Notes: generated by a model from the letters alone, not told the origin. A DNA stretch of 16,014 bases from a virus (IMGVR_UViG_2660238499_000006:1-16014); one strand, 5' to 3'; counted from the first letter of the stretch, positions 1 through 16,014 are shown. Numbers and translations are program-made.

Positions 1-297
1 GGGTGCTTAAGTTACAGGATCCTGGATTCGGGACCAGACGGTACTCAGACGACGCTTACCGCTGTCATTAAACATCACACCATTGAGGCTCTGAAGCTGT
101 TCCCGAACATTGGACAGCATTGCCGACTGTGATTTTACGGAAATAAATTCATAACCCTGATTCCGCAGGTCCTGAATCAGTTCACGTTCCAGGTCCGATT
201 CGCTCTGGTAGCTGTCGCTTGTTTGCTCAGCTTTGATGTACTTATCAAGGACGATAAAGTTATTGGATTCAGCAATGGTGTGTGTTTGATGAGTCAT
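1..297 (-). CDS. hsdR: Type I restriction endonuclease R subunit (HsdR), N-terminal ~97 codons only; gene runs off the window start
   Basis: Minus-strand ORF with ATG at 295-297 (MTHQTHTIAESNNFIVLDKYIKAEQ...), open to the window edge. Lies directly downstream of hsdM-hsdS in the order typical of plasmid-borne type IC systems. N-terminus resembles EcoR124-family HsdR from memory. Confidence 0.7.
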
Positions 298-418
298 AGC
301 GCATCCTTTGTGCCGCCTGGCAAGAGCCGGAAGGGCGTTAAGAGTGACTTCCGGCGCGTAAAAAATAGTCTATATACTGACCGGGTGTTAAGGTGGCCCG
401 ATCGGTAGCAATGGTCAA

Positions 419-1566
<1,148 letters not shown>

Positions 1567-1570
<4 letters not shown>

Positions 1571-3129
1571 TTCTGCACCTCGCAGCCTTCAATTTCAGCC
1601 ACAATCGCATCAATATCTTTACGCAACTGGTCGATTTTGCTAACCGTAGTTTTAAGCTCTGCATTTAGCTCAGCAATATTGATAATTTCGCGGTTATCTT
1701 TCGCTTCTACATAGCAGCTCACCGACAGGTTATAGTCATTAGCGACAACGGTCTCAAACGCGACAGATTTCGCCAGATGAGCAACATCTTCCTTGCTGGC
1801 AAATACCTGCATAATCTGTTCGATATGGGCATCGGTCAGGATATTGTTGTTGGTCTCTTTTTTGAATAGTTCGCTGGCATCAATAAACTGAACTTTGGTA
1901 TCCGTTTTATGTTTAGACAGCACCAGAATATTGACGGCAATAGTGGTGCCAAAGAACAGATTCGGTGCCAGTGAAATCACGGTTTCGACATAGTTATTAT
2001 CAACCAGATACTGACGGATTTTCTGCTCCGCGCCGCCACGGTAAAAAATACCCGGGAAGCAGACAATCGCAGCACGACCTTTGGCCGAAAGATAGTTCAG
2101 CGCATGTAATACAAACGCAAAGTCAGCTTTGGATTTGGGGGCCAGAACGCCAGCCGGGGCAAAACGCTCATCGTTAATCAGCGTCGGGTCATCGCTGCCA
2201 ATCCATTTCACCGAATACGGCGGGTTAGAAACGATGGCATCAAACGGTTTTTCATCTCTGAAGTGCGGTTCAGTCAGCGTATTGCCCAGCTTGATATCAA
2301 ACTTGTCGTAGTTGATGTTGTGCAAAAACATGTTCATACGTGCCAGGTTATAGGTCGTATGGTTGATTTCTTGTCCGAAAAAGCCTTCTTCAATGATATG
2401 GTTATCAAACTGCTTTTTAGCCTGCAACAACAGCGAACCGGAACCTGCGGCCGGGTCGTAGATTTTGTTAACGTGGGTCTGGCCATGCATTGCCAGTTGT
2501 GCAATCAGCTTAGAGACGTGCTGCGGTGTAAAGAACTCACCGCCTGACTTACCGGCATTTGCCGCATAGTTAGAAATCAGGAACTCATAGGCATCACCGA
2601 ACAGGTCAATCTGATGTTCGTTGAAGTCACCAAGTTTTAACCCTTCAACCCCTTTCAGAACCGCAGCCAGGCGGGCATTTTTATCTTTAACGGTGTTACC
2701 CAGGCGGTTACTGGTGGTATCGAAATCAGCAAACAAACCTTTGATGTCAGCTTCTGAAGGGTAACCGTAAGCAGAACTTTCGATAGCAACGAAGATGCTG
2801 TTTAAATCTGCATTCAGTCTGTCATTGGTATTTGCTTTCGCAGCTACGTTGCAGAAAAGCTGACTGGGGTAGATGAAGTAACCTTTGGTTTTGATGGCAT
2901 CGTCTTTAATGTCATCAGTAATTACGCTGTCATCCAGTTTCGCATAACAGATACTGTCATCACCGGCTTCAATATAGCTGGAAAAATTTTCGCTGATAAA
3001 ACGGTAGAAAAGTGCGCCCAGAACGTATTGCTTAAAATCCCATCCATCGACCGAACCCCTGACATCGTTAGCAATTTGCCAGATTTGACGATGAAGCTCT
3101 GCACGTTGTTGAATACTTGTCATTTTCAT
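1567..3129 (-). CDS. hsdM: Type I R-M N6-adenine DNA methyltransferase subunit (HsdM)
   Basis: 520-aa minus ORF with the catalytic NPPY motif (..[12 protein letters not shown]..) and an AdoMet-binding-like [11 protein letters not shown] motif. Stop overlaps the hsdS start. Confidence 0.93.
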
Positions 3130-3253
3130 CCACTTATTTCAGGCTTATGTAATTGGCGGTGATTCTACAGCAACTTGGATGCTTTAGCAGTTCGGACATT
3201 AGGCAACGAATGACCTAATTAGAGCTTTTTGGAAAAGCGGTATTGTCGGTGCG

Positions 3254-6150: not shown

Positions 6151-6193
6151 ATTGCTCTAATGTATTGCTATTTCTTTAATCGAGGGTATTATA
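6151..6193 (+). promoter_or_regulatory. C1 operator (ATTGCTCTAATgtATTg, 6151-6167) overlapping a promoter for lpa (-35 TTGCTA 6165-6170, -10 TATTAT 6187-6192)
   Basis: 11/11 match to the ATTGCTCTAAT operator core; the promoter hexamers are read directly from the sequence. Confidence 0.65.
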
Positions 6194-6237
6194 TTCCACG
6201 TTGATTAGTTGACATGGGCTAATCAGTAGGTGACAGG

Positions 6238-6690
6238 ATGTTACTTAACTGGCAGGGACGCCACTTCATGGAAATAAATCACTCACGAATAACATCGTAC
6301 GAGATTGCGGATTACATGATCCGCACTAAATCTCTTCTATCAGCGAAAGAACTCGCAGCAATTCTTGAAAAGGAACACCCGCATCTGGATGTCGATAAGC
6401 GCGATGTTTATCTGCGCTTAAAGGCTATCGCTGTGTCTAAGTATTCGTCTGTTTTGATTGATGACAGTACACGCCCACGTAGATTTCAGATCCACTCTCT
6501 GAATCCTGAATTCTTTCGCCGTAGCCGCGCTCCGCGCCGGTTTGATGAAAAACTCCAGAATGAACTCTATATGACGCAGGACGAAAAGGAACGCCGGGAG
6601 CACCAGCCTTGGGTAATGGCGCGTCAACTTTTCAATAAGGTGGCCCGTCAGCACCGTCATTACGGTAATGCCACATCCGCACGTATCTGA
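6238..6690 (+). CDS. lpa: Lpa, late promoter activator (gp10-like)
   Basis: 150-aa basic protein immediately upstream of pacA and preceded by a C1-operator-controlled promoter. An alternative start at 6268 (MEINHSR) cannot be excluded. Confidence 0.6.
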   Translation: MLLNWQGRHFMEINHSRITSYEIADYMIRTKSLLSAKELAAILEKEHPHLDVDKRDVYLRLKAIAVSKYSSVLIDDSTRPRRFQIHSLNPEFFRRSRAPRRFDEKLQNELYMTQDEKERREHQPWVMARQLFNKVARQHRHYGNATSARI

Positions 6691-6776
6691 TTGATTGCTT
6701 GCCCGTTCCGGGCCTTTTGACATGTGACTTTCGTTACCCTCGCGTCAAAAAGAGTTTTATACGAAAGGAAGCATAA

Positions 6777-7970
6777 GTGACCTGGGACGATCACAAGAAG
6801 AATTTTGCTCGCCTGGCGCGAGATGGTGGTTACACCATCGCACAGTATGCCGCCGAGTTTAATCTTAACCCTAATACCGCACGTCGTTATCTCCGTGCCT
6901 TCAAAGAAGACACCAGGACTGCGGACAGCCGCAAGCCAAATAAGCCAGTCAGGAAGCCACTAAAAAGCATGATCATTGATCACTCTAATGATCAACATGC
7001 AGGTGATCATATTGCGGCTGAAATAGCGGAAAAACAGAGAGTTAATGCCGTTGTCAGTGCCGCAGTCGAGAATGCGAAGCGCCAAAATAAGCGCATAAAT
7101 GATCGTTCGGATGATCATGACGTGATCAACCGCGCCCACCGGACCTTACGTGATCGCCTGGAACGCGACACCCTGGATGATGATGGTGAACGCTTTGAAT
7201 TCGAAGCTGGCGATTACCTGATAGATAACGTTGAAGCGCGGAAGGCCGCGCGCGCTATGTTGCGTCGGTCCGGGGCCGATGTTCTGGAAACCACTCTTCT
7301 TGAAAAGTCTCTTTCTCATCTCCTTATGCTGGAGAACGCCAGGGATACGTGTATTCGCCTGGTGCAGGAAATGCGCGATCAGCAAAAAGACGATGATGAA
7401 GGTACTCCGCCTGAATACCGTATCGCGAGCATGCTAAACAGCTGTTCCGCGCAGATAAGCAGTCTGATCAACACCATTTACAGCATCCGGAATAACTATC
7501 GAAAAGAAAGCCGGGAGGCGGAAAAGCACGCTTTGTCTATGGGGCAAGCTGGCATTGTTAAGCTGGCATACGAACGAAAGCGTGAAAATAACTGGTCAGT
7601 GCTGGAAGCGGCTGAATTCATCGAGGCGCATGGAGGAAAAGTGCCGCCCCTGATGCTGGAGCAAATCAAAGCCGATCTGCGTGCTCCTAAGACCAATACC
7701 GATGATGAGGAAAACCAAACAGCATCTGGCGCTCCATCACTTGAAGATCTGGATAAAATCGCGCGAGAACGGGCCGCCAGCCGCCGCGCTGATGCGGCAT
7801 TGTGGATTGAGCATCGTAGAGAAGAAATTGCCGATATCGTCGATACAGGTGGTTATGGTGATGTCGATGCGGAAGGCATATCAAACGAAGCATGGCTTGA
7901 ACAGGATCTGGACGAAGACGAGGAGGAAGACGAAGAAGTCACCCGCAAGCTATACGGGGATGATGATTAA
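6777..7970 (+). CDS. pacA: PacA, packaging (pacase) subunit; contains the pac site and an acidic C-terminal tail
   Basis: 397 aa; GTG start with SD aaggaag. pac hexamer clusters lie inside the ORF. C-terminus ...[19 protein letters not shown] overlap with pacB. Confidence 0.85.
6970..7128. other. P1-type pac site: four TGATCA hexamers (6970, 6977, 6989, 7004) and three TGATC(G/A) hexamers (7100, 7112, 7123) flanking the cleavage region; an extra TGATCG at 7151
   Basis: Seven hexamers in a 4+3 arrangement over about 160 bp, each carrying a Dam GATC site, matching the described organisation of the P1 pac site. Confidence 0.85.
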
Positions 7971-9454
7971 TGGCCAGAAGTTGCGTAACGGATCCACGTT
8001 GGCGCGAGCTGGTGGCGCTATATCGTTATGACTGGATTGCGGCCGCTGATGTTTTGTTCGGCAAAACACCTACCTGGCAGCAGGATCTGATTATTGAGTC
8101 TGTGCAGGAACAGGGTAGCAAGACATCTGTTTCGTCTGGTCACGGTACCGGGAAATCAGACATGACTTCTATCATGATCATGTTGTTCATAATCATGTAT
8201 CCCGGTGCCCGCGCCATTATCGTTGCGAACAAAATTCAGCAGGTAATGACCGGTATTTTCAAGTACATCAAGATAAACTGGGCTACTGCCACCAGCCGTT
8301 TTCCATGGCTTGCTGATTATTTTGTTCTGACAGAAACCGCTTTCTATGAGGTTACTGGTAAAGGTGTATGGACTGTAGTACCGAAGGGCTTTCGTCTGGG
8401 AAGTGAAGAAGCTCTCGCCGGTGAACACGCAGATCATCTTCTGTATATTATCGATGAAGCCTCCGGTGTCAGTGATAGAGCTTTCGGTATCATCACCGGT
8501 GCTCTTACCGGACAGGATAACCGCATCTTATTGCTGTCACAGCCTACACGCCCAAGCGGCTATTTCTACGATACACACCATAAACTGGCCAAGCGTCCTG
8601 GTAACCCTGATGGCGTTTATACGGCGATCACGCTTAACAGTGAGGAATCACCGTTGGTAACGCCAGCATTTATCAAAATGAAGCTGGCGGAGTACGGCGG
8701 GCGTGATAACCCTATGTACATGATTAAGGTACGCGGCCTATTCCCTAAATCACAGGATGGCTTCCTTCTTGGACGTGATGAGGTTGAACGTGCAACGCGG
8801 CGGAAAGTCAAGATTGCAAAAGGATGGGGCTGGCTTGCATGTGTGGACGTTGCTGGTGGTACGGGACGGGATAAGTCCGTTATCAATATCATGATGGTGT
8901 CCGGCCAGCGAAATAAACGCCGTGTAATCAACTATCGAATGCTGGAATACACAGACGTTACAGAAACGCAGCTTGCCGCCAAAATTTTCGCAGAATGTAA
9001 TCCTGAGCGATTCCCAAATATCACCATAGCGATAGATGGCGATGGCCTGGGTAAAGCAACGGCGGATCTGATGTACGAGTATTATGGTATTACCGTACAG
9101 CGTATACGCTGGGGTAAAAAGATGCATAGCCGTGAAGATAAGAGCCTGTACTTTGATAAACGTGCTTATGCCAACGTTCAAGCCGCAGAGGCCGTAAAAT
9201 CTGGTCGTATGAGACTGGATAAGGGTAATGAAACTATTGAGGAAGCGTCGAAAATCCCTGTAGGGATTAACTCCGCAGGTCAATGGAAGGTGATGAGTAA
9301 GGAGGATATGAAGAAAAAACTCAACCTGCACTCACCAGACCATTGGGATACATATTGTTTCGCTATGCTGGCGGATTATGTTCCTCAGGATGAAGTGCTT
9401 AGCGTCGAAGACGAAGCGCAGGTTGATGAAGCTCTGGCATGGCTTAATGAATAA
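7970..9454 (+). CDS. pacB: PacB, packaging (pacase/terminase-like) large subunit
   Basis: 494 aa, translationally coupled to pacA. Contains a Walker-A-like [10 protein letters not shown] motif and an acidic region. Confidence 0.85.
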
Positions 9455-9457
9455 ATA

Positions 9458-9474
9458 TTTGCTCTAATAAATTG
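9458..9474 (+). promoter_or_regulatory. C1 operator (tTTGCTCTAATAAATTg) immediately after the pacB stop
   Basis: 16/17 match to the ATTGCTCTAATAAATTT consensus. Confidence 0.7.
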
Positions 9475-9605
9475 TGTTTTTTAACTACCGATGTTACATT
9501 GAACCTGACCTCTTGCGCCTTGAGGCATTTTCGGTTTATGCTTATCAGGCACCTCAGTAAAACGGGTGCCGGGATTGAGACCCCGGATAATGCAAAAGGC
9601 GACAC

Positions 9606-9629
9606 AGACGCCAAAAGCGTCTTTTTTTG
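9606..9629 (+). terminator. Rho-independent terminator (stem agacgc/gcgtct, loop caaaa, T7)
   Basis: GC-containing hairpin followed by TTTTTTT on the plus strand, about 150 nt after pacB. Confidence 0.6.
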
Positions 9630-9813
9630 TGTCATGCCATCGCACAGCCATACGTAGCGTTTAGCTCAGAGATCAATGGTAGTGCTGGCTGGGCTGCCGA
9701 AAGGCAGGCCGGTTCCCTTTTGCGCCGGTAGTCTCAACCCAGTCAGTGCTACCGCCATTGAGATTGAGACCTCACGCGGTAGCTCCTTAAATTAGCAAAA
9801 GGAGGCTGCCATT

Positions 9814-10035
9814 GTGGCTACTATCCCTACCCCTGCTCATCCTGAATTTATCTGGCGCTTTTACTCCTGCCAAAAACGTCACTATCACTTCGTTATTGCA
9901 CCGACAGAAGATGAGGCACGTTCTCAGCTTCCGGATGCTCCCTGTATTTTCTCTGCCCGCTTTTCTACCGATTCGCGCAATTCTCTCAGTTACTGGTGCC
10001 TCCCTGTTAACGCTTCTGCTCAGGAGGGACTATGA
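9814..10035 (+). CDS. Icd-like small protein (candidate host cell-division inhibitor), 73 aa
   Basis: GTG start 8 nt after GGAGG. PEFIWRF...PTEDEARSQL...IFSARF fits the Icd-like F.WRF / TE.EAR pattern as I recall it. Its TGA stop overlaps the ATG of the next ORF (ATGA). Confidence 0.45.
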   Translation: MATIPTPAHPEFIWRFYSCQKRHYHFVIAPTEDEARSQLPDAPCIFSARFSTDSRNSLSYWCLPVNASAQEGL

Positions 10036-10214
10036 GAACGTCATTAGTCACCCGTGAAGAGATGATCGAGGCAATTGAACAGCACACTGCCTGTATCAGT
10101 ACCAGGGATATACCGGGCGTTATTGCCAACTACTTCATTCATGATCACCAAACAACTTTACCGGAGAAAGGACAAACACGCGGTTCACCGCATTCTGCTA
10201 ACCGATATCCGTGA
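10032..10214 (+). CDS. 60-aa ORF translationally coupled to the icd-like gene; possibly the N-terminal remnant of a frame-disrupted Ant1-like start
   Basis: ATG overlaps the upstream stop (ctATGA). The ORF ends at 10214 while the ant frame (+1) is open across the same region. Confidence 0.3.
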   Translation: MRTSLVTREEMIEAIEQHTACISTRDIPGVIANYFIHDHQTTLPEKGQTRGSPHSANRYP

Positions 10215-10284
10215 ATACCTGCTCGAACAGGGTCATCTGAATTACGCAACCGTCGCAGCCGAAGCACGCAAGGAGGCACACAGA

Positions 10285-11148
10285 ATGAAAGCAACTAACG
10301 TTAAATCAGAAAAAATTTATGCACCTTCAGTTCAGGAATCGGAACTGGTGGTTGTTCAGAATCAGCCGGATGAAATTCCCGTTCTGGAATGGCAGGGAGT
10401 ACGTGTCGTGACAACCGAAACTCTTGCTAGAGGGTATGGGGTCGATGAAGCCAATATTCGCAACAATTTGTCTCGCAACCTTGACCGCTTTGAAGAAGGT
10501 AAGCATTACTTTCTTCTAACTGGTTTAAAATTAAGAGAATTTAAGAACAGAGTAACCGGAAGTTACTCTGTTGGTAAGAACGCCAGAAGCCTTACACTCT
10601 GGACAGAGCGCGGCGCTGCACGCATGTCTAAGATCGTGGACACAAATGAAGCGTGGGCATTCTTTGAAAAACTGGAAGACAGCTACTTCCGACAAAAAGA
10701 ACAGCAACCGATCGCAATCCCCCAGACGCTTCCAGAAGCTCTGCGCCTGGCTGCCGAACTGGCTGAACAAAAGCAGCTTCTGGAACAGAAAGCCCACCAG
10801 CTAAATCAGCAGCTGGTGGCCGCCGCTCCTAAAGTCGATTTTGCCGACCGGGTATCAGTAGCTAAAGGGATCCTGATTGGGAATTTTGCAAAGGTTGTTG
10901 GACTTAAGCAAAACGCGCTGTTTGCCTGGTTACGGGAGAACGGCATCCTGATAGCGTCCGGTGGACGTAAAAATGTGCCGTTCCAGCAGTACATCAATGC
11001 GGGGTATTTCACGGTGAAAGAAGTGATGCTGGATGATGAAGATGGCTACCAGATACGGTTGACGCCTCAATTAACGGGTAAAGGCCAGCAGTGGTTGACG
11101 CGTAAACTGCTCGATGCTGGCTTGTTAAAACCGGTGGCGGCTGAATAA
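10285..11148 (+). CDS. Phage antirepressor-like protein (N-terminal ORF6N/Bro-N-like, C-terminal KilAC/Ant-C-like), Ant2-sized (287 aa)
   Basis: Strong SD AGGAGG 8 nt before the ATG at 10285. ...PVLEWQGVRVVTTETLARGYGVDEANIRNNL... and C-terminal ...FADRVSVAKGILIGNFAKVVGLKQNALFAWLRENGILIASGG...YINAGYFTVKEV... are antirepressor-type domain patterns. The frame stays open upstream to 10066. Confidence 0.6.
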   Translation: MKATNVKSEKIYAPSVQESELVVVQNQPDEIPVLEWQGVRVVTTETLARGYGVDEANIRNNLSRNLDRFEEGKHYFLLTGLKLREFKNRVTGSYSVGKNARSLTLWTERGAARMSKIVDTNEAWAFFEKLEDSYFRQKEQQPIAIPQTLPEALRLAAELAEQKQLLEQKAHQLNQQLVAAAPKVDFADRVSVAKGILIGNFAKVVGLKQNALFAWLRENGILIASGGRKNVPFQQYINAGYFTVKEVMLDDEDGYQIRLTPQLTGKGQQWLTRKLLDAGLLKPVAAE

Positions 11149-11155
11149 TGGAAGA

Positions 11156-11177
11156 ATGCCCGGTTGATGCCGGGCAT
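11156..11177. terminator. Hairpin (atgcccgg/ccgggcat) between the convergent ant-like and c1 genes; candidate bidirectional terminator
   Basis: 8-bp stem lying between the ant-like stop (11146-11148) and the c1 stop (11181-11183), with T-rich flanks on both strands. Confidence 0.4.
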
Positions 11178-11180
11178 AAT

Positions 11181-12032
11181 TTATTGCGCGCTTTCGGGGT
11201 TGTCGTTTACTGGCTGCCCCTTCTTGGTTTTACGGCTGCGCGTAACTGATGCGGCTGACTTAACCTTTTTCTCTTCGCGAGTGATGGCAATTTGTTTTTT
11301 TACATTTTCAATATCTGCCAGGCGATATATTTTTGCTTGCGGCCAGCGGTCGCAGATGATCGGTTCTATGGAGTCATAAAGGCTAAATTTTGCTTTTTCG
11401 AATTCACCGTTGATGATAATTCCATCACGGAGAGTTTCATCGCAGATAAACACGCCACACAGTGGCACATGGTAACTAACTGATTTACCATCATTGTAGT
11501 TAGGGCTACTGGAAATGTAGTGGACGCGCAGCATTGTTTCGCTAAAGCCGTGTACGCGCATACGGAATTTTTCATCCTCCGGGTACTGCCTCATTAGCTC
11601 TTTTGTTGCTTCCAGGTTCTCTATGTATTTCGCACTGTGCTCATTGATCCCCGCGCTTTTTTGGATGCGAATGTCCTTATCAATCAGATGAATAATGCGG
11701 CCAGCGGTCATGTTGACGCTGTTCACAGCTTCTGTCTGATAAGTTGTAACCTTGCGCACACCGCGAAGGATGTTAGGCACTGGATATAAAATAGTCTTTG
11801 GGATATTGAGGTCTGGGTACTGTTCCAGTTCCCGCGCCATTAAAGTCCATTTATCAATTTCAGCCTGAATGCTGTCCGTTTCTTTGAACGGTAGAACGAC
11901 AACCGGGCGTACAGGACGACCGTCGCTGGCGGTATCAACGTGTTGGGCGCGTGCAACAGCTTTTTTTAGAAAGAGATCCCTGAAGCTGACGAACTCCTGG
12001 TACAGTTGTTCGCCGTAGACATAATTTATCAT
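11181..12032 (-). CDS. c1: C1 repressor of lysis (primary immunity repressor), 283 aa
   Basis: MINYVYGEQLYQEFVSFRDLFLKK...; length, position next to coi/loxP and the surrounding operators all match P1 C1. Confidence 0.92.
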   Translation of the reverse strand: MINYVYGEQLYQEFVSFRDLFLKKAVARAQHVDTASDGRPVRPVVVLPFKETDSIQAEIDKWTLMARELEQYPDLNIPKTILYPVPNILRGVRKVTTYQTEAVNSVNMTAGRIIHLIDKDIRIQKSAGINEHSAKYIENLEATKELMRQYPEDEKFRMRVHGFSETMLRVHYISSSPNYNDGKSVSYHVPLCGVFICDETLRDGIIINGEFEKAKFSLYDSIEPIICDRWPQAKIYRLADIENVKKQIAITREEKKVKSAASVTRSRKTKKGQPVNDNPESAQ

Positions 12033-12126
12033 TGATCCTCCTCCAGAATTGACATGGTCAATAACGCCCGGCTGAGAAAACCGGTCATTACTGACCTATA
12101 TTATAGAGGGATCAAACAAAAATAAT

Positions 12127-12143
12127 AGATTTATTAGTGCATT
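12127..12143 (-). promoter_or_regulatory. C1 operator (reverse orientation, about 14/17) between coi and c1
   Basis: agATTTATTAGtGCAtT compared with AAATTTATTAGAGCAAT. Confidence 0.5.
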
Positions 12144-12352
12144 TATTGTGAGTCTAACTGGTTAGTTGCCATGAGATATTCGATTGTGTCAGTGAGGTCA
12201 TCCAGGTCGTCTTGGGTGATGCGGTACTCCTGATTGGATATCTTTGAGTAGTGTTCAGCAATGGCGCGGGCAGCGTCGGTTTCGGCAGGGTCTACAGATA
12301 AAGCGTTAGAGCAATGTCTAACGTCGTCGATGGTTGGTTGAATGAAAGCCAT
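12143..12352 (-). CDS. coi: Coi, C1 inactivator, 69 aa
   Basis: 69-aa acidic ORF (MAFIQPTIDDVRH...) directly upstream of c1 on the same strand, with SD GAGG 7 nt before the ATG. Confidence 0.8.
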   Translation of the reverse strand: MAFIQPTIDDVRHCSNALSVDPAETDAARAIAEHYSKISNQEYRITQDDLDDLTDTIEYLMATNQLDSQ

Positions 12353-12590
12353 AATTATGCCTCACTGTATTGACAACACAGAGCCTGAAGCTCTGACCTA
12401 CTGTTTCACCCATGATCCATGCTGGGGTAATCTAACAACATTGCGCTGTGTGTAAGATGAGCAATGCATAGCTGTAATGCCGTTGTATAAGGTTTCCCTG
12501 TTTGCTCATTTCCTTCTGAGCCGCTCTACAACGCTGAAGACACATTAAATAGTGAATCCAAAGTCGTATTACGTAACGGCGGCAAAACTA

Positions 12591-12607
12591 TAATTTATTA
12601 GAGCAAT
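12591..12607 (-). promoter_or_regulatory. C1 operator (reverse orientation, 16/17), overlapped by a minus-strand TTGACA (12609-12614) and a plus-strand TATAAT (12589-12594)
   Basis: tAATTTATTAGAGCAAT. Candidate immC promoter/operator driving coi-c1. Confidence 0.7.
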
Positions 12608-12673
12608 TGTCAAACAACTATGAAAAACAATCCAGTTTTTAGCTGGTGGAGTGGGATTTTTCTCTCAAAATTT

Positions 12674-12690
12674 ATTGCTCTAATAATTCT
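12674..12690 (+). promoter_or_regulatory. C1 operator (ATTGCTCTAATAATTCT, 14/17)
   Basis: Direct match to the operator core, 44 bp left of loxP. Confidence 0.65.
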
Positions 12691-12733
12691 TGATTTTTGT
12701 GCGCAGCTGGACGTAAACTCCTCTTCGGACCTA

Positions 12734-12767
12734 ATAACTTCGTATAGCATACATTATACGAAGTTAT
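12734..12767. other. loxP site (ATAACTTCGTATA-GCATACAT-TATACGAAGTTAT)
   Basis: Exact 34-bp canonical loxP: two 13-bp inverted arms around the asymmetric 8-bp spacer. Confidence 0.98.
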
Positions 12768-12786
12768 ATTAAGGGTTATTGAATAT

Positions 12787-12859
12787 GATCAATTTACCTG
12801 TAAATCCATACAGTTCAATACCTTGGCAGGTCAAATAGTGATCACTTGATCATTTGATC
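12787..12859. promoter_or_regulatory. Cluster of four Dam GATC sites in the cra/cre upstream region (candidate methylation-sensitive promoter)
   Basis: GATC at 12787, 12840, 12848 and 12856; three lie within 20 bp (gtGATCacttGATCatttGATCaagg). Confidence 0.5.
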
Positions 12860-12956
12860 AAGGTTGCGCTACGTAAAATCTGTGAAAAATTGGCGGTGTC
12901 AGTCCTACAGATTTCGCGTAGCGCACTTAGCACCACCAATCAATCAGAGGTGAAAA

Positions 12957-13178
12957 ATGGGATATTCAGCTGCTAAAGTGTCCACTCATCTTGAGCTTGA
13001 GAAAAATCGTGGTTACTGGCGGGCAAAAGGGTTTGATCGTGATAGTTGTCAACTGTCATTATCGCGCGGTGAAGAAAAGATAGAACGCAGTCGCGGTCGT
13101 TGGCGTTTCTATGACGAGAACCATAAACAGGTAAAGGCAGAGCCGATCCTGTACACTTTACTTAAAACCATTATCTGA
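12957..13178 (+). CDS. cra: Cra (cre-associated small protein)
   Basis: 73-aa ORF with SD gaggtg, immediately upstream of cre as in P1. Confidence 0.65.
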   Translation: MGYSAAKVSTHLELEKNRGYWRAKGFDRDSCQLSLSRGEEKIERSRGRWRFYDENHKQVKAEPILYTLLKTII

Positions 13179-13185
13179 GTGTTAA

Positions 13186-14217
13186 ATGTCCAATTTACTG
13201 ACCGTACACCAAAATTTGCCTGCATTGCCGGTCGATGCAACGAGTGATGAGGTTCGCAAGAACCTGATGGACATGTTCAGGGATCGCCAGGCGTTTTCTG
13301 AGCATACCTGGAAAATGCTTCTGTCCGTTTGCCGGTCATGGGCGGCATGGTGCAAGTTGAATAACCGGAAATGGTTTCCCGCAGAACCTGAAGATGTTCG
13401 CGATTATCTTCTATATCTTCAGGCGCGCGGTCTGGCAGTGAAAACTATCCAGCAACATTTGGGCCAGCTAAATATGCTTCATCGTCGGTCCGGGCTGCAA
13501 CGACCAAGTGACAGCAATGCTGTTTCACTCGTCATGCGACGGATCCGAAAAGAAAACGTTGATGCCGGTGAGCGTGCAAAACAGGCGCTGGCGTTCGAAC
13601 GCACTGATTTCGACCAGGTTCGTTCACTCATGGAAAATAGCGATCGCTGCCAGGATATACGTAATCTGGCATTTCTGGGGATTGCTTATAACACCCTGTT
13701 ACGTATAGCCGAAATTTCTAGGATCAGAGTTAAAGATATCTCACGTACTGACGGTGGGAGAATGTTAATCCATATTGGCAGAACGAAAACGCTGGTTAGC
13801 ACCGCTGGTGTAGAGAAGGCACTTAGTCTGGGGGTAACTAAACTGGTTGAGCGATGGATTTCTGTCTCTGGTGTGGCTGATGATCCGAATAACTACTTGT
13901 TTTGCCGTGTCAGAAAAAATGGTGTTGCCGCGCCATCTGCCACCAGCCAGCTATCAACTCGCGCCCTGGAAGGGATTTTTGAAGCAACTCACCGATTGAT
14001 TTTCGGGGCTAAGGATGACTCTGGCCAGAGGTACCTGGCCTGGTCTGGACACAGTGCCCGTGTCGGAGCCGCGCGAGATATGGCCCGCGCCGGAGTTTCA
14101 ATACCGGAGATCATGCAAGCTGGTGGCTGGACCAACGTAAATATTGTCATGAACTATATCCGTAACCTGGATAGTGAAACAGGGGCAATGGTGCGCCTGC
14201 TGGAAGATGGCTATTAG
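13186..14217 (+). CDS. cre: Cre site-specific tyrosine recombinase, 343 aa
   Basis: MSNLLTVHQNLPALPVDATSDEVRKNLMDMFRDRQAFSEHTWKMLLSVCRSWAAWCKLNNRKWFPAEPEDVRDYLLYLQARGLAVKTIQQHLGQLNMLHRRSGL...; start lies 436 bp from the loxP centre, as in P1 numbering. Confidence 0.98.
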   Translation: MSNLLTVHQNLPALPVDATSDEVRKNLMDMFRDRQAFSEHTWKMLLSVCRSWAAWCKLNNRKWFPAEPEDVRDYLLYLQARGLAVKTIQQHLGQLNMLHRRSGLQRPSDSNAVSLVMRRIRKENVDAGERAKQALAFERTDFDQVRSLMENSDRCQDIRNLAFLGIAYNTLLRIAEISRIRVKDISRTDGGRMLIHIGRTKTLVSTAGVEKALSLGVTKLVERWISVSGVADDPNNYLFCRVRKNGVAAPSATSQLSTRALEGIFEATHRLIFGAKDDSGQRYLAWSGHSARVGAARDMARAGVSIPEIMQAGGWTNVNIVMNYIRNLDSETGAMVRLLEDGY

Positions 14218-14234
14218 CCATTAGCGCGCAAATG

Positions 14235-14251
14235 ATTGCTCTAATTCTTTG
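14235..14251 (+). promoter_or_regulatory. C1 operator (ATTGCTCTAATTCTTTG) just after the cre stop
   Basis: 11/11 core match. Confidence 0.6.
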
Positions 14252-14267
14252 GTATTTATGGTGACAT

Positions 14268-14579
14268 GTGAGAAAGGATTTCAACATCGACGGAAAATAT
14301 GTAGTGCTGTCTGTAAGCACTAATATTCAGTCGCCAGCCGTCATTGTCACTGTAAAGCTGAGCGATAGAATGCCTGATATTGACTCAATATCCGTTGCGT
14401 TCCCTGTCAAAAGTATGCGTAGTGCTGAACATTTCGTGATGAATGCCACCGAGAAAGAAGCACGGCGCGGTTTTGCCAAAGTGATGGCCGAGTTTGGCGA
14501 ATTTTTGGGGCACGTTGACAAAGCCCTTTCAATCAGTTCAGCAAGGTCCAAAGCGTTAACAGCTTCCATGCTGAAATAA
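14268..14579 (+). CDS. Hypothetical protein in the c8 position between cre and ref; weak start (GTG, no clear SD)
   Basis: 103-aa ORF. The coding call is uncertain because the adjacent terminator belongs to the opposite strand and the start context is poor. Confidence 0.3.
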   Translation: MRKDFNIDGKYVVLSVSTNIQSPAVIVTVKLSDRMPDIDSISVAFPVKSMRSAEHFVMNATEKEARRGFAKVMAEFGEFLGHVDKALSISSARSKALTASMLK

Positions 14580-14604
14580 AAAAAGCCTGGCAAGGAGCCA
14601 GGCT
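14574..14604 (-). terminator. Strong rho-independent terminator for a leftward (minus-strand) transcript
   Basis: 8-bp perfect stem agcctggc/gccaggct with loop aagga; on the minus strand it is followed by TTTTTTTATTT. Confidence 0.65.
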
Positions 14605-14709
14605 GCACAAAAGAGCGGGTTTGTATTCCGCATTCAATCAATCAAGAAGGAGTATAGTACACAGGTACTGAAGTGAAAAAATGTGATTCGCGATAAACAA
14701 ATAACTTTA

Positions 14710-14739
14710 ATTGCTCTAATTGATTGCTATAATTGAGCC
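14710..14739 (+). promoter_or_regulatory. Two overlapping C1 operators (ATTGCTCTAATTGATTG 14710-14726; ATTGCTATAATTGAGCC 14723-14739) with an embedded perfect -10 TATAAT (14728-14733)
   Basis: Operator cores and the -10 hexamer are read directly; the arrangement resembles the tandem C1 operators reported upstream of ref in P1. Confidence 0.65.
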
Positions 14740-14824: not shown

Positions 14825-15262
14825 ATGAAAACAATCGAACAAAAACTTGAACAGCGCCGCGAGTGGCAGAAGGCAGCCAGAGAACGAGCGATCGATCGGC
14901 AACGGGAAAAGTTGGCTGACCCCGCCTGGCGAGAATCGCAATATCAGAAAATGCGGGATTCTATCGACCGCCGTATCGCTAAACAGAAAGAGCGCCCACC
15001 AGCCAGCAAAACGCGGAAAAGTGCGGTAAAAATAAAATCTCGTGGCTTGAAGGGGCGAACACCGACGGCGGAGGAACGGACCATCGCCAATGCTCTTGGC
15101 ACTCTCCCCTGCATTGCCTGCTACATGCATGGAGTAATATCTGAAGAGGTGTCTCTGCACCATATCTCCGGTCGTACCGCGCCGGGTTGTCACAAAAAGC
15201 AATTGCCCCTTTGTAGATGGCACCACCAGCATGCAGCACCGGCTGAAGTAAGAGGGGTTTGA
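14825..15262 (+). pseudogene. ref: ref (recombination enhancement function, HNH-type nuclease), 3'-truncated by a Tn3-family insertion; the last codons and the stop come from the transposon inverted repeat
   Basis: MKTIEQKLEQRREWQKAARERAIDRQREK... with a Cys/His cluster (CIACYMHGVISEEVSLHHISGRTAPGCHKKQLPLCRWHH). The ORF is 145 aa against the 186 aa I recall for P1 Ref, and the frame runs into the IR starting at 15254. Confidence 0.6.
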
Positions 15263-15291
15263 GGGCCAATGATGTAAAAAACCACGCTAAG
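15254..15291. repeat. Tn3-family 38-bp terminal inverted repeat (GGGGTTTGAGGGCCAATGATGTAAAAAACCACGCTAAG)
   Basis: GGGG...ACGCTAAG architecture; the first 18 bp match the gamma-delta/Tn1000-type IR as I recall it. The tnpA stop codon (15287-15289) lies inside it, as is typical of Tn3-family elements. Confidence 0.8.
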
Positions 15292-15956
15292 GAGGTAATT
15301 CATTGTTTAAATTGAGATTTAACGGCCTCAATTCCCCCTTCATAATATCCTCCGGTAGTGTGAACGTATAATGTCCCAGCATGTTGATATGACCATGCAT
15401 CAGAGGCGAAAGCCGCGCGATATGTTCATCTTCTGGCCCTTCCCCAGTGCTACGCAGGTGCGACAAGGCTTCCTGCATATAAAGCGTATTCCACAGCACC
15501 ACTGCGTTTGTCACCAGACCCAGCGCACCCAACTGATCTTCCTGCCCCTCGCGGTAACGTTTTCTGATCTCACCACGCTGACCGTAGCAAATGGCTCTTG
15601 CCACGGCATGGCGACCTTCGCCCCGGTTAAGCTGTGTTAGGATCCTGCGGCGATAGTCCTCATCATCAATATAGTTGAGAAGATACAGTGTCTTGTTAAC
15701 TCTTCCGACCTCCATTATTGCCTGAGCAAGCCCTGACGGTCGGGTACTTCTCAATAGCGATCGAATGAGTTCTGACGCATGAATTGTGCCCAGCTTCAGC
15801 GAACCTGCAACCCGCATCATCTCATCCCAGTGGCTTTCGATTTTAGAAAGGTCAACACAACCCCGAGCCAGTTCGTCCAACGCCCCGTAATTCGCTGCTT
15901 TGTCAGCCCGCCAGAACACCGCCTCACCAGCATCCGCCAGACGAGGTGAAAATTGG
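15287..15956 (-). pseudogene. tnpA: Tn3-family transposase (TnpA), C-terminal ~220 codons only; 5' part removed by IS26
   Basis: Translation ...IESHWDEMMRVAGSLKLGTIHASELIRSL...LNYIDDEDYRRRILTQLNRGEG...LGLVTNAVVLWNTLYMQEAL...HINMLGHYTF matches the conserved Tn3-family TnpA C-terminus. The frame is cut at the IS26 boundary, with an in-frame stop inside IS26. Confidence 0.8.
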
Positions 15957-16014
15957 GGCACTGTTGCAAATAGTCGGTGGTGATAAACTTATCATCCCCT
16001 TTTGCTGATGGAGC
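15957..16014 (+). mobile_element. IS26 left end (IRL GGCACTGTTGCAAA plus 44 bp of leader), continuing beyond the window
   Basis: GGCACTGTTGCAAATAGTCGGTGGTGATAAACTTATCATCCCCTTTTGCTGATGGAGC matches the IS26 IRL and tnp26 upstream sequence from memory. Confidence 0.85.

Follow-up and report, generated by a model that had tools for sequence, protein, structure and literature searches.

Which protein reads the short asymmetric motif that recurs in the window, and does it act at every copy? The window, by which we mean the whole analysed stretch of 16,014 nucleotides (nt) from a virus (IMGVR_UViG_2660238499_000006:1-16014; positions are counted from its first letter), is a segment of a P1-like phage-plasmid carrying hsdS/M, phd-doc, lpa, pacAB, c1-coi, loxP-cre, c8 and ref. 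By megablast it belongs to the P1 family (Punavirus), with 94-98% identity to P1, P7, SJ46, RCS47, JL22 and vB_EcoM-673R5 across lxr-humD-phd-doc-pdcB-lpa-pacA-pacB, c1-coi and loxP-cre-c8-ref. We think it very probable that the motif copies are binding sites of the C1 immunity repressor encoded in the window itself. The network as such is already known and is textbook P1 biology; to it we add two plausible new members, one at 9458, directly after pacB, which is strongly supported, and one at 14235, between cre and c8, which is moderately supported. With the seven operators in the window that are annotated in P1, these make nine credible monovalent C1 operators.

C1 recognises an asymmetric operator of 17 base pairs (bp) with the consensus ATTGCTCTAATAAATTT. 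P1 operators overlap or abut scattered sigma-70 promoters, and one protein silences many small lytic-phase operons in the plasmid prophage. In the window the cognate repressor is encoded by the same element as the operators, at the position that it has in P1:

11181..12032, minus strand: c1, product identical to P1 C1.100 at 281 of 284 residues (99%)

Given this near-identity, we infer that the repressor of the window has the same DNA specificity as that of P1, for which 22 dispersed C1 operators with the consensus ATTGCTCTAATAAATTT have been described (PMC8546580).

Motif enrichment and the operators annotated in P1

The enrichment of the motif is real. Five exact copies of its 11-bp core, ATTGCTCTAAT, are present in the window, four on the plus strand (6151, 12674, 14235 and 14710) and one on the minus strand (12597, part of the 17-mer at 12591-12607), against a mean of 0.01 in dinucleotide shuffles, and none of 200 shuffles reached five. 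The motif therefore stands well above the shuffled background, a comparison that the preliminary description of this DNA had proposed. That description had listed eight copies of the core; the enrichment holds, but three of the eight are variants, with one mismatch at 9458 (TTTGCTCTAAT) and at 14723 (ATTGCTATAAT) and two at 12127-12143 on the minus strand (AATGCACTAAT). When two mismatches are allowed throughout, 14 matches are found against 5.75 expected, which is only weakly significant.

A position-weight-matrix scan with known P1 operators, also proposed there, singled out a small set of sites. The P1 record AF234172 has 20 'phage repressor C1' features, all of which we gathered; to avoid circularity, the matrix was trained only on the 12 operators whose positions fall outside the part of P1 that is homologous to the window, and the null consisted of 2000 first-order Markov simulations of the window. 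Six sites scored above 14, against 0.16 expected. Of the null runs, 0.35% had a best score of at least 20.5, 8% one of at least 15.0 and 96% one of at least 7.1. As an operator we counted a site that follows the 17-bp asymmetric consensus with its near-invariant core of T3, C5, C7 and T8-A9-A10-T11. Such a core is found at 6151, 9458, 12127 (minus), 12299 (minus), 12591 (minus), 12674, 14235 and 14710, the site at 12299 having C for T11 exactly as P1 Oc1c does, but it is broken at 14723 (A7) and at 3212 (A2, A3).

Seven window sites correspond, in sequence and in relative position, to C1 protein_bind features of AF234172. They are listed here with the matrix score where one was obtained; the first and second members of the bivalent operator have lines of their own.

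6151..6167, plus strand: Olpa (formerly Op94), ATTGCTCTAATGTATTG, score 12.8; 17-mer and position identical to P1 feature 89904-89920
12116..12143: bivalent Oc1ab (formerly Op99a,b), P1 features 94166-94193; overlaps the -35 element of Pc1
12116-12132, plus strand: Oc1b, ACAAAAATAATAGATTT; the weak partner of Oc1a
12127-12143, minus strand: Oc1a, AATGCACTAATAAATCT, score 23.4
12299..12315, minus strand: Oc1c (formerly Op99c), ATTGCTCTAACGCTTTA = ATTGCTCTAAC, score 8.0; within coi; P1 feature 94349-94365
12591..12607, minus strand: Oc1d (formerly Op99d), ATTGCTCTAATAAATTA, score 25.7; P1 feature 94641-94657; occupies the P1coi spacer
12674..12690, plus strand: Oc1e (formerly Op99e), ATTGCTCTAATAATTCT, score 25.6; P1 feature 94724-94740
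14710..14726, plus strand: Oref (formerly Op2a), ATTGCTCTAATTGATTG, score 16.4; P1 feature 1962-1978; between the -35 and -10 elements of P2ref

Olpa begins 2 nt past the pdcB stop codon and its 3' end overlaps the Plpa -35 element TTGCTA (6165-6170; the -10 element, TATTAT, is at 6187-6192), while Oc1e abuts the -35 element of P4cre 44 nt ahead of loxP. The sigma-70 promoter overlaps of all seven orthologous sites follow from the P1 promoter annotation, and with them the overlaps with -10 and -35 hexamers that had been noticed earlier. In 9-30 related IMG/VR contigs the annotated operators are invariant or nearly so, against a divergence of 1-6% in their 60-nt flanks: Olpa is unchanged in all nine contigs compared (flank divergence 3.1%), Oc1a and Oc1c each in 22 of 22 relatives and Oc1d in 24 of 24, and the core of Oref is retained in 24 of 26. 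If C1 acts at these sites as in P1, it would block Plpa from Olpa and hence the late-promoter activator; Oc1a/b, Oc1c and Oc1d would provide for c1 autoregulation and coi control; and the repressor would be seated against P4cre beside loxP at Oc1e and within P2ref at Oref. The C1 operator network put forward in the preliminary description is thus borne out by the seven P1 features and the near-identical repressor. All the sites that it listed can be kept as operators or candidate operators except 14723, and it had overlooked Oc1b and Oc1c.

It could be argued that AT-rich intergenic DNA yields such matches by chance and that they form no network. The two-mismatch count offers this argument some footing, and the weakest candidates do lie at background; but the exact 11-mers do not arise in shuffled DNA in anything like this number, seven sites coincide with annotated P1 operators, and the flanks vary more than the sites do. 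With the shuffle controls and the orthology against it, this explanation is already refuted, and we regard its probability as negligible. One could also err in the opposite direction and draw the network too wide, taking 14723 for a further operator at ref, in tandem with Oref, and the site near 3212 as placing the hsdMS operon under C1. In favour of this, the 14723 copy repeats 10 of the 11 core bases 2 nt after Oref, and about 83 nt separate the 3212 site from the hsdM start downstream of it. Their scores of 7.2 and 7.1, however, are of a size reached in 96% of null windows, and the details of both sequences argue against operator function, so that we consider this wider network very improbable. 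The two rejected sites are as follows.

14723..14733, plus strand: extended -10 element (TGcTATAAT, with TATAAT at 14728-14733) of P2ref according to the P1 annotation; score 7.2, which is background
3212..3228, minus strand: AAAGCTCTAATTAGGTC, upstream of hsdM; score 7.1, with at least one site as good in 96% of null windows

At 14723 the TATAAT is the only part conserved, being invariant in 26 relatives, and the preceding ATTGC varies (GTTGC, ATTGT, CTTGC, ATCGC, GTTGA). Position 7 of the site is an A, but it is a C in 19 of the 20 operators annotated in P1, with the weak half-site Oc1b as the exception. The 3212 site has two core mismatches, one of them at the near-invariant T3, and a 3' half that does not match. 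Both are indistinguishable from background, and the earlier suggestion that the core near hsdM might bring the restriction-modification operon under immunity control finds no support.

Candidate operators after pacB and before c8

The two sites that we add to the network, together with the promoters next to the first of them, are:

9458..9474, plus strand: unannotated candidate operator, TTTGCTCTAATAAATTG, score 20.5; 4 nt past the pacB stop codon
9472-9477 and 9495-9500, plus strand: P51a-like candidate promoter (-35 TTGTGT, 17-nt spacer, -10 TACATT), overlapped by the 3' end of the 9458 site
9520..9548, plus strand: P51b-like candidate constitutive promoter (TTGAGG, 17-nt spacer, TATCAG), downstream of the operator
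14235..14251, plus strand: unannotated candidate operator, ATTGCTCTAATTCTTTG, score 15.0; 18 nt past the cre stop codon and 17 nt before the c8 GTG (14268)

Both sites are oriented like the gene downstream and begin less than 20 nt past the stop codon upstream, a placement that matches P1 Olpa, Orlf, OpmgRa, OpmgT and Oppp. We infer from the sequence that C1 binds at 9458 and 14235 and that it affects the promoters there.

The site at 9458 scores as high as proven operators (window-wide p of about 0.004; 0.0035) and is identical at 16 of 17 positions to the known operator OrepL/Op53, differing only at the last base. Its sequence and the next 26 nt align with Oc4(Op51)/P51a, which stand first in the immI operon of P1, and the P51b-like promoter likewise aligns with P1 P1c4/P51b (TTGACC, 17 nt, TATAGT), with a weak match to consensus. 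A generic sigma-70 scan of the sequence called neither promoter, and both assignments come from the P1 alignment only. The 17-mer is identical in RCS47, JL22 and 673R5. A pattern scan of IMG/VR that specified the flanks only, with any base allowed at the 17 operator positions, gave 31 instances when pooled with the other loci compared here, of which 28 have the identical operator and three a single substitution; these instances span three C4 specificity alleles and cassettes that have diverged by about 12%. C1 control of the cassette behind pacB through 9458 is therefore well supported by homology with P1. The preliminary description had drawn such control of an ant-like module from the position of this copy, and the alignment with Op51/P51a supports it. 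Because the P51b-like candidate constitutive promoter lies downstream of the operator, however, C1 would control only part of the transcription of the cassette.

The site at 14235 contains the exact 11-bp core and is identical to Oref at 15 of 17 positions. As read from the sequence, it also overlaps an extended -10-like element, TGcTCTAAT (14237-14245). P1 and P7 carry ATTGCTATAATTATTTG at the same position (core ATTGCTATAAT), and that allele reads as a consensus extended -10 element, TGcTATAAT. Among 30 IMG/VR relatives and phiW39, the allele with the operator core ATTGCTCTAAT is in the majority (27-28, versus 3-4 with the P1/P7 allele), and phiW39 is one of those that carry it in the cre-c8 spacer. 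The spacer can thus be described as a two-state polymorphism, operator core versus consensus extended -10. The predicted Pc8 of the P1 record lies elsewhere, inside cre. At 14235, C1 binding would make c8 C1-repressible, and on balance we lean towards regarding this site as probably a functional operator.

Several points weigh against reading these two sites as operators. Neither is annotated in the P1 or P7 records. The site at 9458 has a positional orthologue in P1 only by way of the paralogous immI operon (Op51), the hexamers of its P51a-like promoter are weak (8 of 12 positions) as well as uncalled by the generic scan, and the frameshift of the long form of the antirepressor in the window may make control of the cassette partly moot. 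The site at 14235 has no positional orthologue among the P1 operators, and 8% of null windows contain a site that scores as high by chance (p = 0.08). The matrix moreover fails to separate the two alleles (15.0 for that of the window, 14.7 for that of P1/P7): the window allele gains C7 but has C13, where all 12 training operators have A13, although position 13 also deviates in the validated Olpa, Oref and Oc1c. Finally, a single substitution would turn the motif into an extended -10 promoter, and conservation of the motif could reflect promoter function.

Taken together, such points could be read to mean that both sites are non-functional look-alikes, 14235 being a weakened c8 promoter and 9458 a relic of an imported immI cassette. 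The closeness of the core ATTGCTCTAAT to TGcTATAAT would fit this, as would the presence at the c8 site of P1 and P7 of ATTGCTATAAT, which is not annotated as an operator and scores equally on the matrix; as 14723 illustrates, a copy with one mismatch may be nothing but a -10 element, and the long antirepressor form is frameshifted in the window. Yet 9458 scores like the proven operators, comes within one base of Op53, stands exactly at the Op51 position of the homologous P1 operon and has been kept in 28 of 31 instances while the cassettes around it diverged. For its part, 14235 has the full invariant core, including the C7 that is common to all annotated P1 operators but the weak Oc1b, and departs from the validated Oref at just two positions, in the variable 3' half. 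We consider it unlikely that both sites are look-alikes and favor the possibility that they belong to the C1 network. In the papers that we could search, neither operator is described; key subscription papers lay outside that search.

The second immI-like cassette between pacB and c1

What would C1 control from 9458? In P1, P7 and phiW39, pacB is joined directly to c1, whereas the window has a 1.7-kb insert there (9455-11180), whose parts together make a full homologue of P1 immI. In PMC6906374 the insert is mentioned, but only in the words 'two short orfs and an ant gene, as in RCS47'. The searchable papers contain no account of an operator or a C4 RNA in it; with key subscription papers outside the search, an earlier description is possible. 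Since the canonical immI is present in its usual position in JL22, RCS47 and 673R5 as well, the insert is a second cassette. Beyond the operator and the two promoters given above, its parts are as follows (ORF, open reading frame):

9549..9627, plus strand: isrK-like leader (Rfam RF01394, 58.2 bits, above gathering), with an intrinsic terminator at 9606-9622 and a T run
9575-9581 and 9592-9599: C4 target sites a1 and b1 in the leader
9672..9759, plus strand: C4-type antisense RNA (Rfam RF01695, 75 bits, E = 2e-13), with b' at 9716-9723 and a' at 9731-9737
9764-9770 and 9795-9802, plus strand: C4 target sites a2 and b2, the latter overlapping the Shine-Dalgarno sequence AAGGAGG (9799-9805) of the Icd-like ORF
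9814..10035, plus strand: Icd-like ORF of 73 amino acids with a GTG start, 81% identical to P1 Icd (pairwise BLASTP, E = 1e-40)
10032..11148, plus strand: antirepressor gene (Pfam ANT/KilAC, 1.5e-31; ORF6N, 1.8e-18)

The C4-type RNA has a fold of -46.4 kcal/mol, and its loops a' (GUCUCAA) and b' (CCUUUUGC) are perfect complements of a1/b1 and a2/b2. We established this complementarity by direct motif search; duplex prediction with the whole C4 RNA and the leader returned long duplexes that could not be interpreted. The b' loop differs in RCS47 (CCUUUGAC) and in 673R5 (CCUUGGAC), and in each of them both b targets are changed to match. Three C4 alleles can be told apart in this way, with b' of CCUUGGAC in 19 instances, CCUUUUGC, the type of the window, in six and CCUUUGAC in five; they look like exchangeable antisense specificities, as between P1 and P7. 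With regard to the leader, that of the P1 immI operon gives a weak, sub-threshold isrK match (35 bits) overlapping the c4-a1b1 family, so the isrK-like element of the insert corresponds to the immI leader, which points to homology between that leader and the Rfam isrK family.

The stop codon of the Icd-like ORF overlaps the ATG of the long antirepressor (Ant) form at 10032 (ATGA, 10032-10035), like P1 icd/ant1, and the C-terminal 177 amino acids of Ant are 76% identical to P1 Ant1 by pairwise BLASTP. Compared with JL22 and RCS47, the long form (about 371 amino acids) is frameshifted by a 4-bp tandem duplication, TTCATTCA (10134-10141), which could be a real mutation or an assembly error; the short form, from the ATG at 10285 (287 amino acids), is intact. 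A Pfam search with the small ORFs of the insert and with C1, Coi and C8 returned nothing useful.

By analogy with P1 immI, it is likely that C1 and C4 share control of the second cassette. C1 at 9458 would shut the upstream P51a-like promoter, and the P51b-like promoter would keep supplying the C4 antisense RNA, which would mask the a and b target sites together with the icd-ant ribosome-binding site and so keep the antirepressor silent. The predicted function of an immI-type operon, again by analogy, is to produce an antirepressor that inactivates C1.

At least 80% of a 1.8-kb query made up of the end of pacB, the cassette and the end of c1 is present in at least 309 plasmids of PLSDB. Re-finding the known network is mainly a confirmation of the window as a P1-like immunity region, and what the two extra sites add is modest. 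A widespread variant has a second antirepressor operon that is apparently wired to C1 like immI and has antisense specificity alleles of its own, and most relatives have an operator-like site before c8 that the reference phages P1 and P7 are without. An operator map based on P1 and P7 would then be incomplete for the P1-like phage-plasmids, which are common today in E. coli and Salmonella and in many cases carry resistance genes, and both the second cassette and the c8 site bear on the stability of repression in the plasmid prophage and on the coexistence and mutual induction of such elements. As a tentative generalisation, to which we give somewhat less than even odds, many P1-like phage-plasmids may carry a C1-gated second immI cassette with at least three C4 specificities as an extra, exchangeable heteroimmunity determinant, and c8 may be C1-repressible in most natural elements but not in P1 and P7.

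Surroundings of the window and comparison with known systems

The other features of the window to which the text refers are:

7-297: weak HsdR N-terminal-like ORF
419-1570, minus strand: hsdS
1567-3129, minus strand: hsdM
6238-6690: lpa
12143-12352, minus strand: coi
12734-12767: loxP
15287-15961, minus strand: tnpA fragment (Pfam DDE_Tnp_Tn3), itself cut at about 15959 by an IS26 inverted repeat, GGCACTGTTGCAAA

The left 3.1 kb is taken up by the type I restriction-modification genes hsdS and hsdM (1-3129, minus strand). P1 has other genes there, and the P1 record mentions EcoDXXI hsd flank remnants at the same location. At the other end, ref is truncated at about 15254 by a Tn3-family end, followed by the IS26 inverted repeat; the terminal repeat that cuts ref begins GGGGTTTGAGGGCC, and the transposon-derived DNA occupies 15254-16014. 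Because of this truncation the window lacks Omat, which in P1 is located at the end of ref and makes this group of operators complete.

The closest known systems include the set of C1 operators of P1. The window shares with it the 17-bp asymmetric motif, a repressor that is 99% identical and seven sites that are alike in sequence, position and promoter overlap, but it has in addition the sites at 9458 and 14235, for which P1 and P7 have no counterpart feature, and it is missing Omat at the Tn3-family end.

The cassette at 9455-11180 has its counterpart in the immI operon of P1 and P7 (Op51-P51a/P51b-c4-icd-ant1/ant2), with the same order of parts: an operator with the upstream promoter and a second promoter (all three being candidates in the window), the a1/b1 leader, C4, a2/b2, Icd, an ATGA-coupled ant and the short Ant. 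It differs from immI in being a second copy at another place, between pacB and c1; in its C4 recognition loops, of which there are three alleles among relatives; in the N-terminal domain of Ant (ORF6N); in a leader that scores as isrK above gathering; and in the frameshift of the long Ant.

A further parallel is provided by isrK-orf45-anrP of Salmonella Gifsy-1 (PMC4825925). There, as in the window, a small ORF and an antirepressor gene are preceded by an isrK-family RNA with a terminator of its own, and read-through of the terminator would yield a long mRNA. Unlike in Gifsy-1, no AntQ-type antiterminator was seen in the window, and the isrK-family RNA of the window is part of a P1-type immI operon that also has a C4 antisense RNA, behind a candidate P1 C1 operator.

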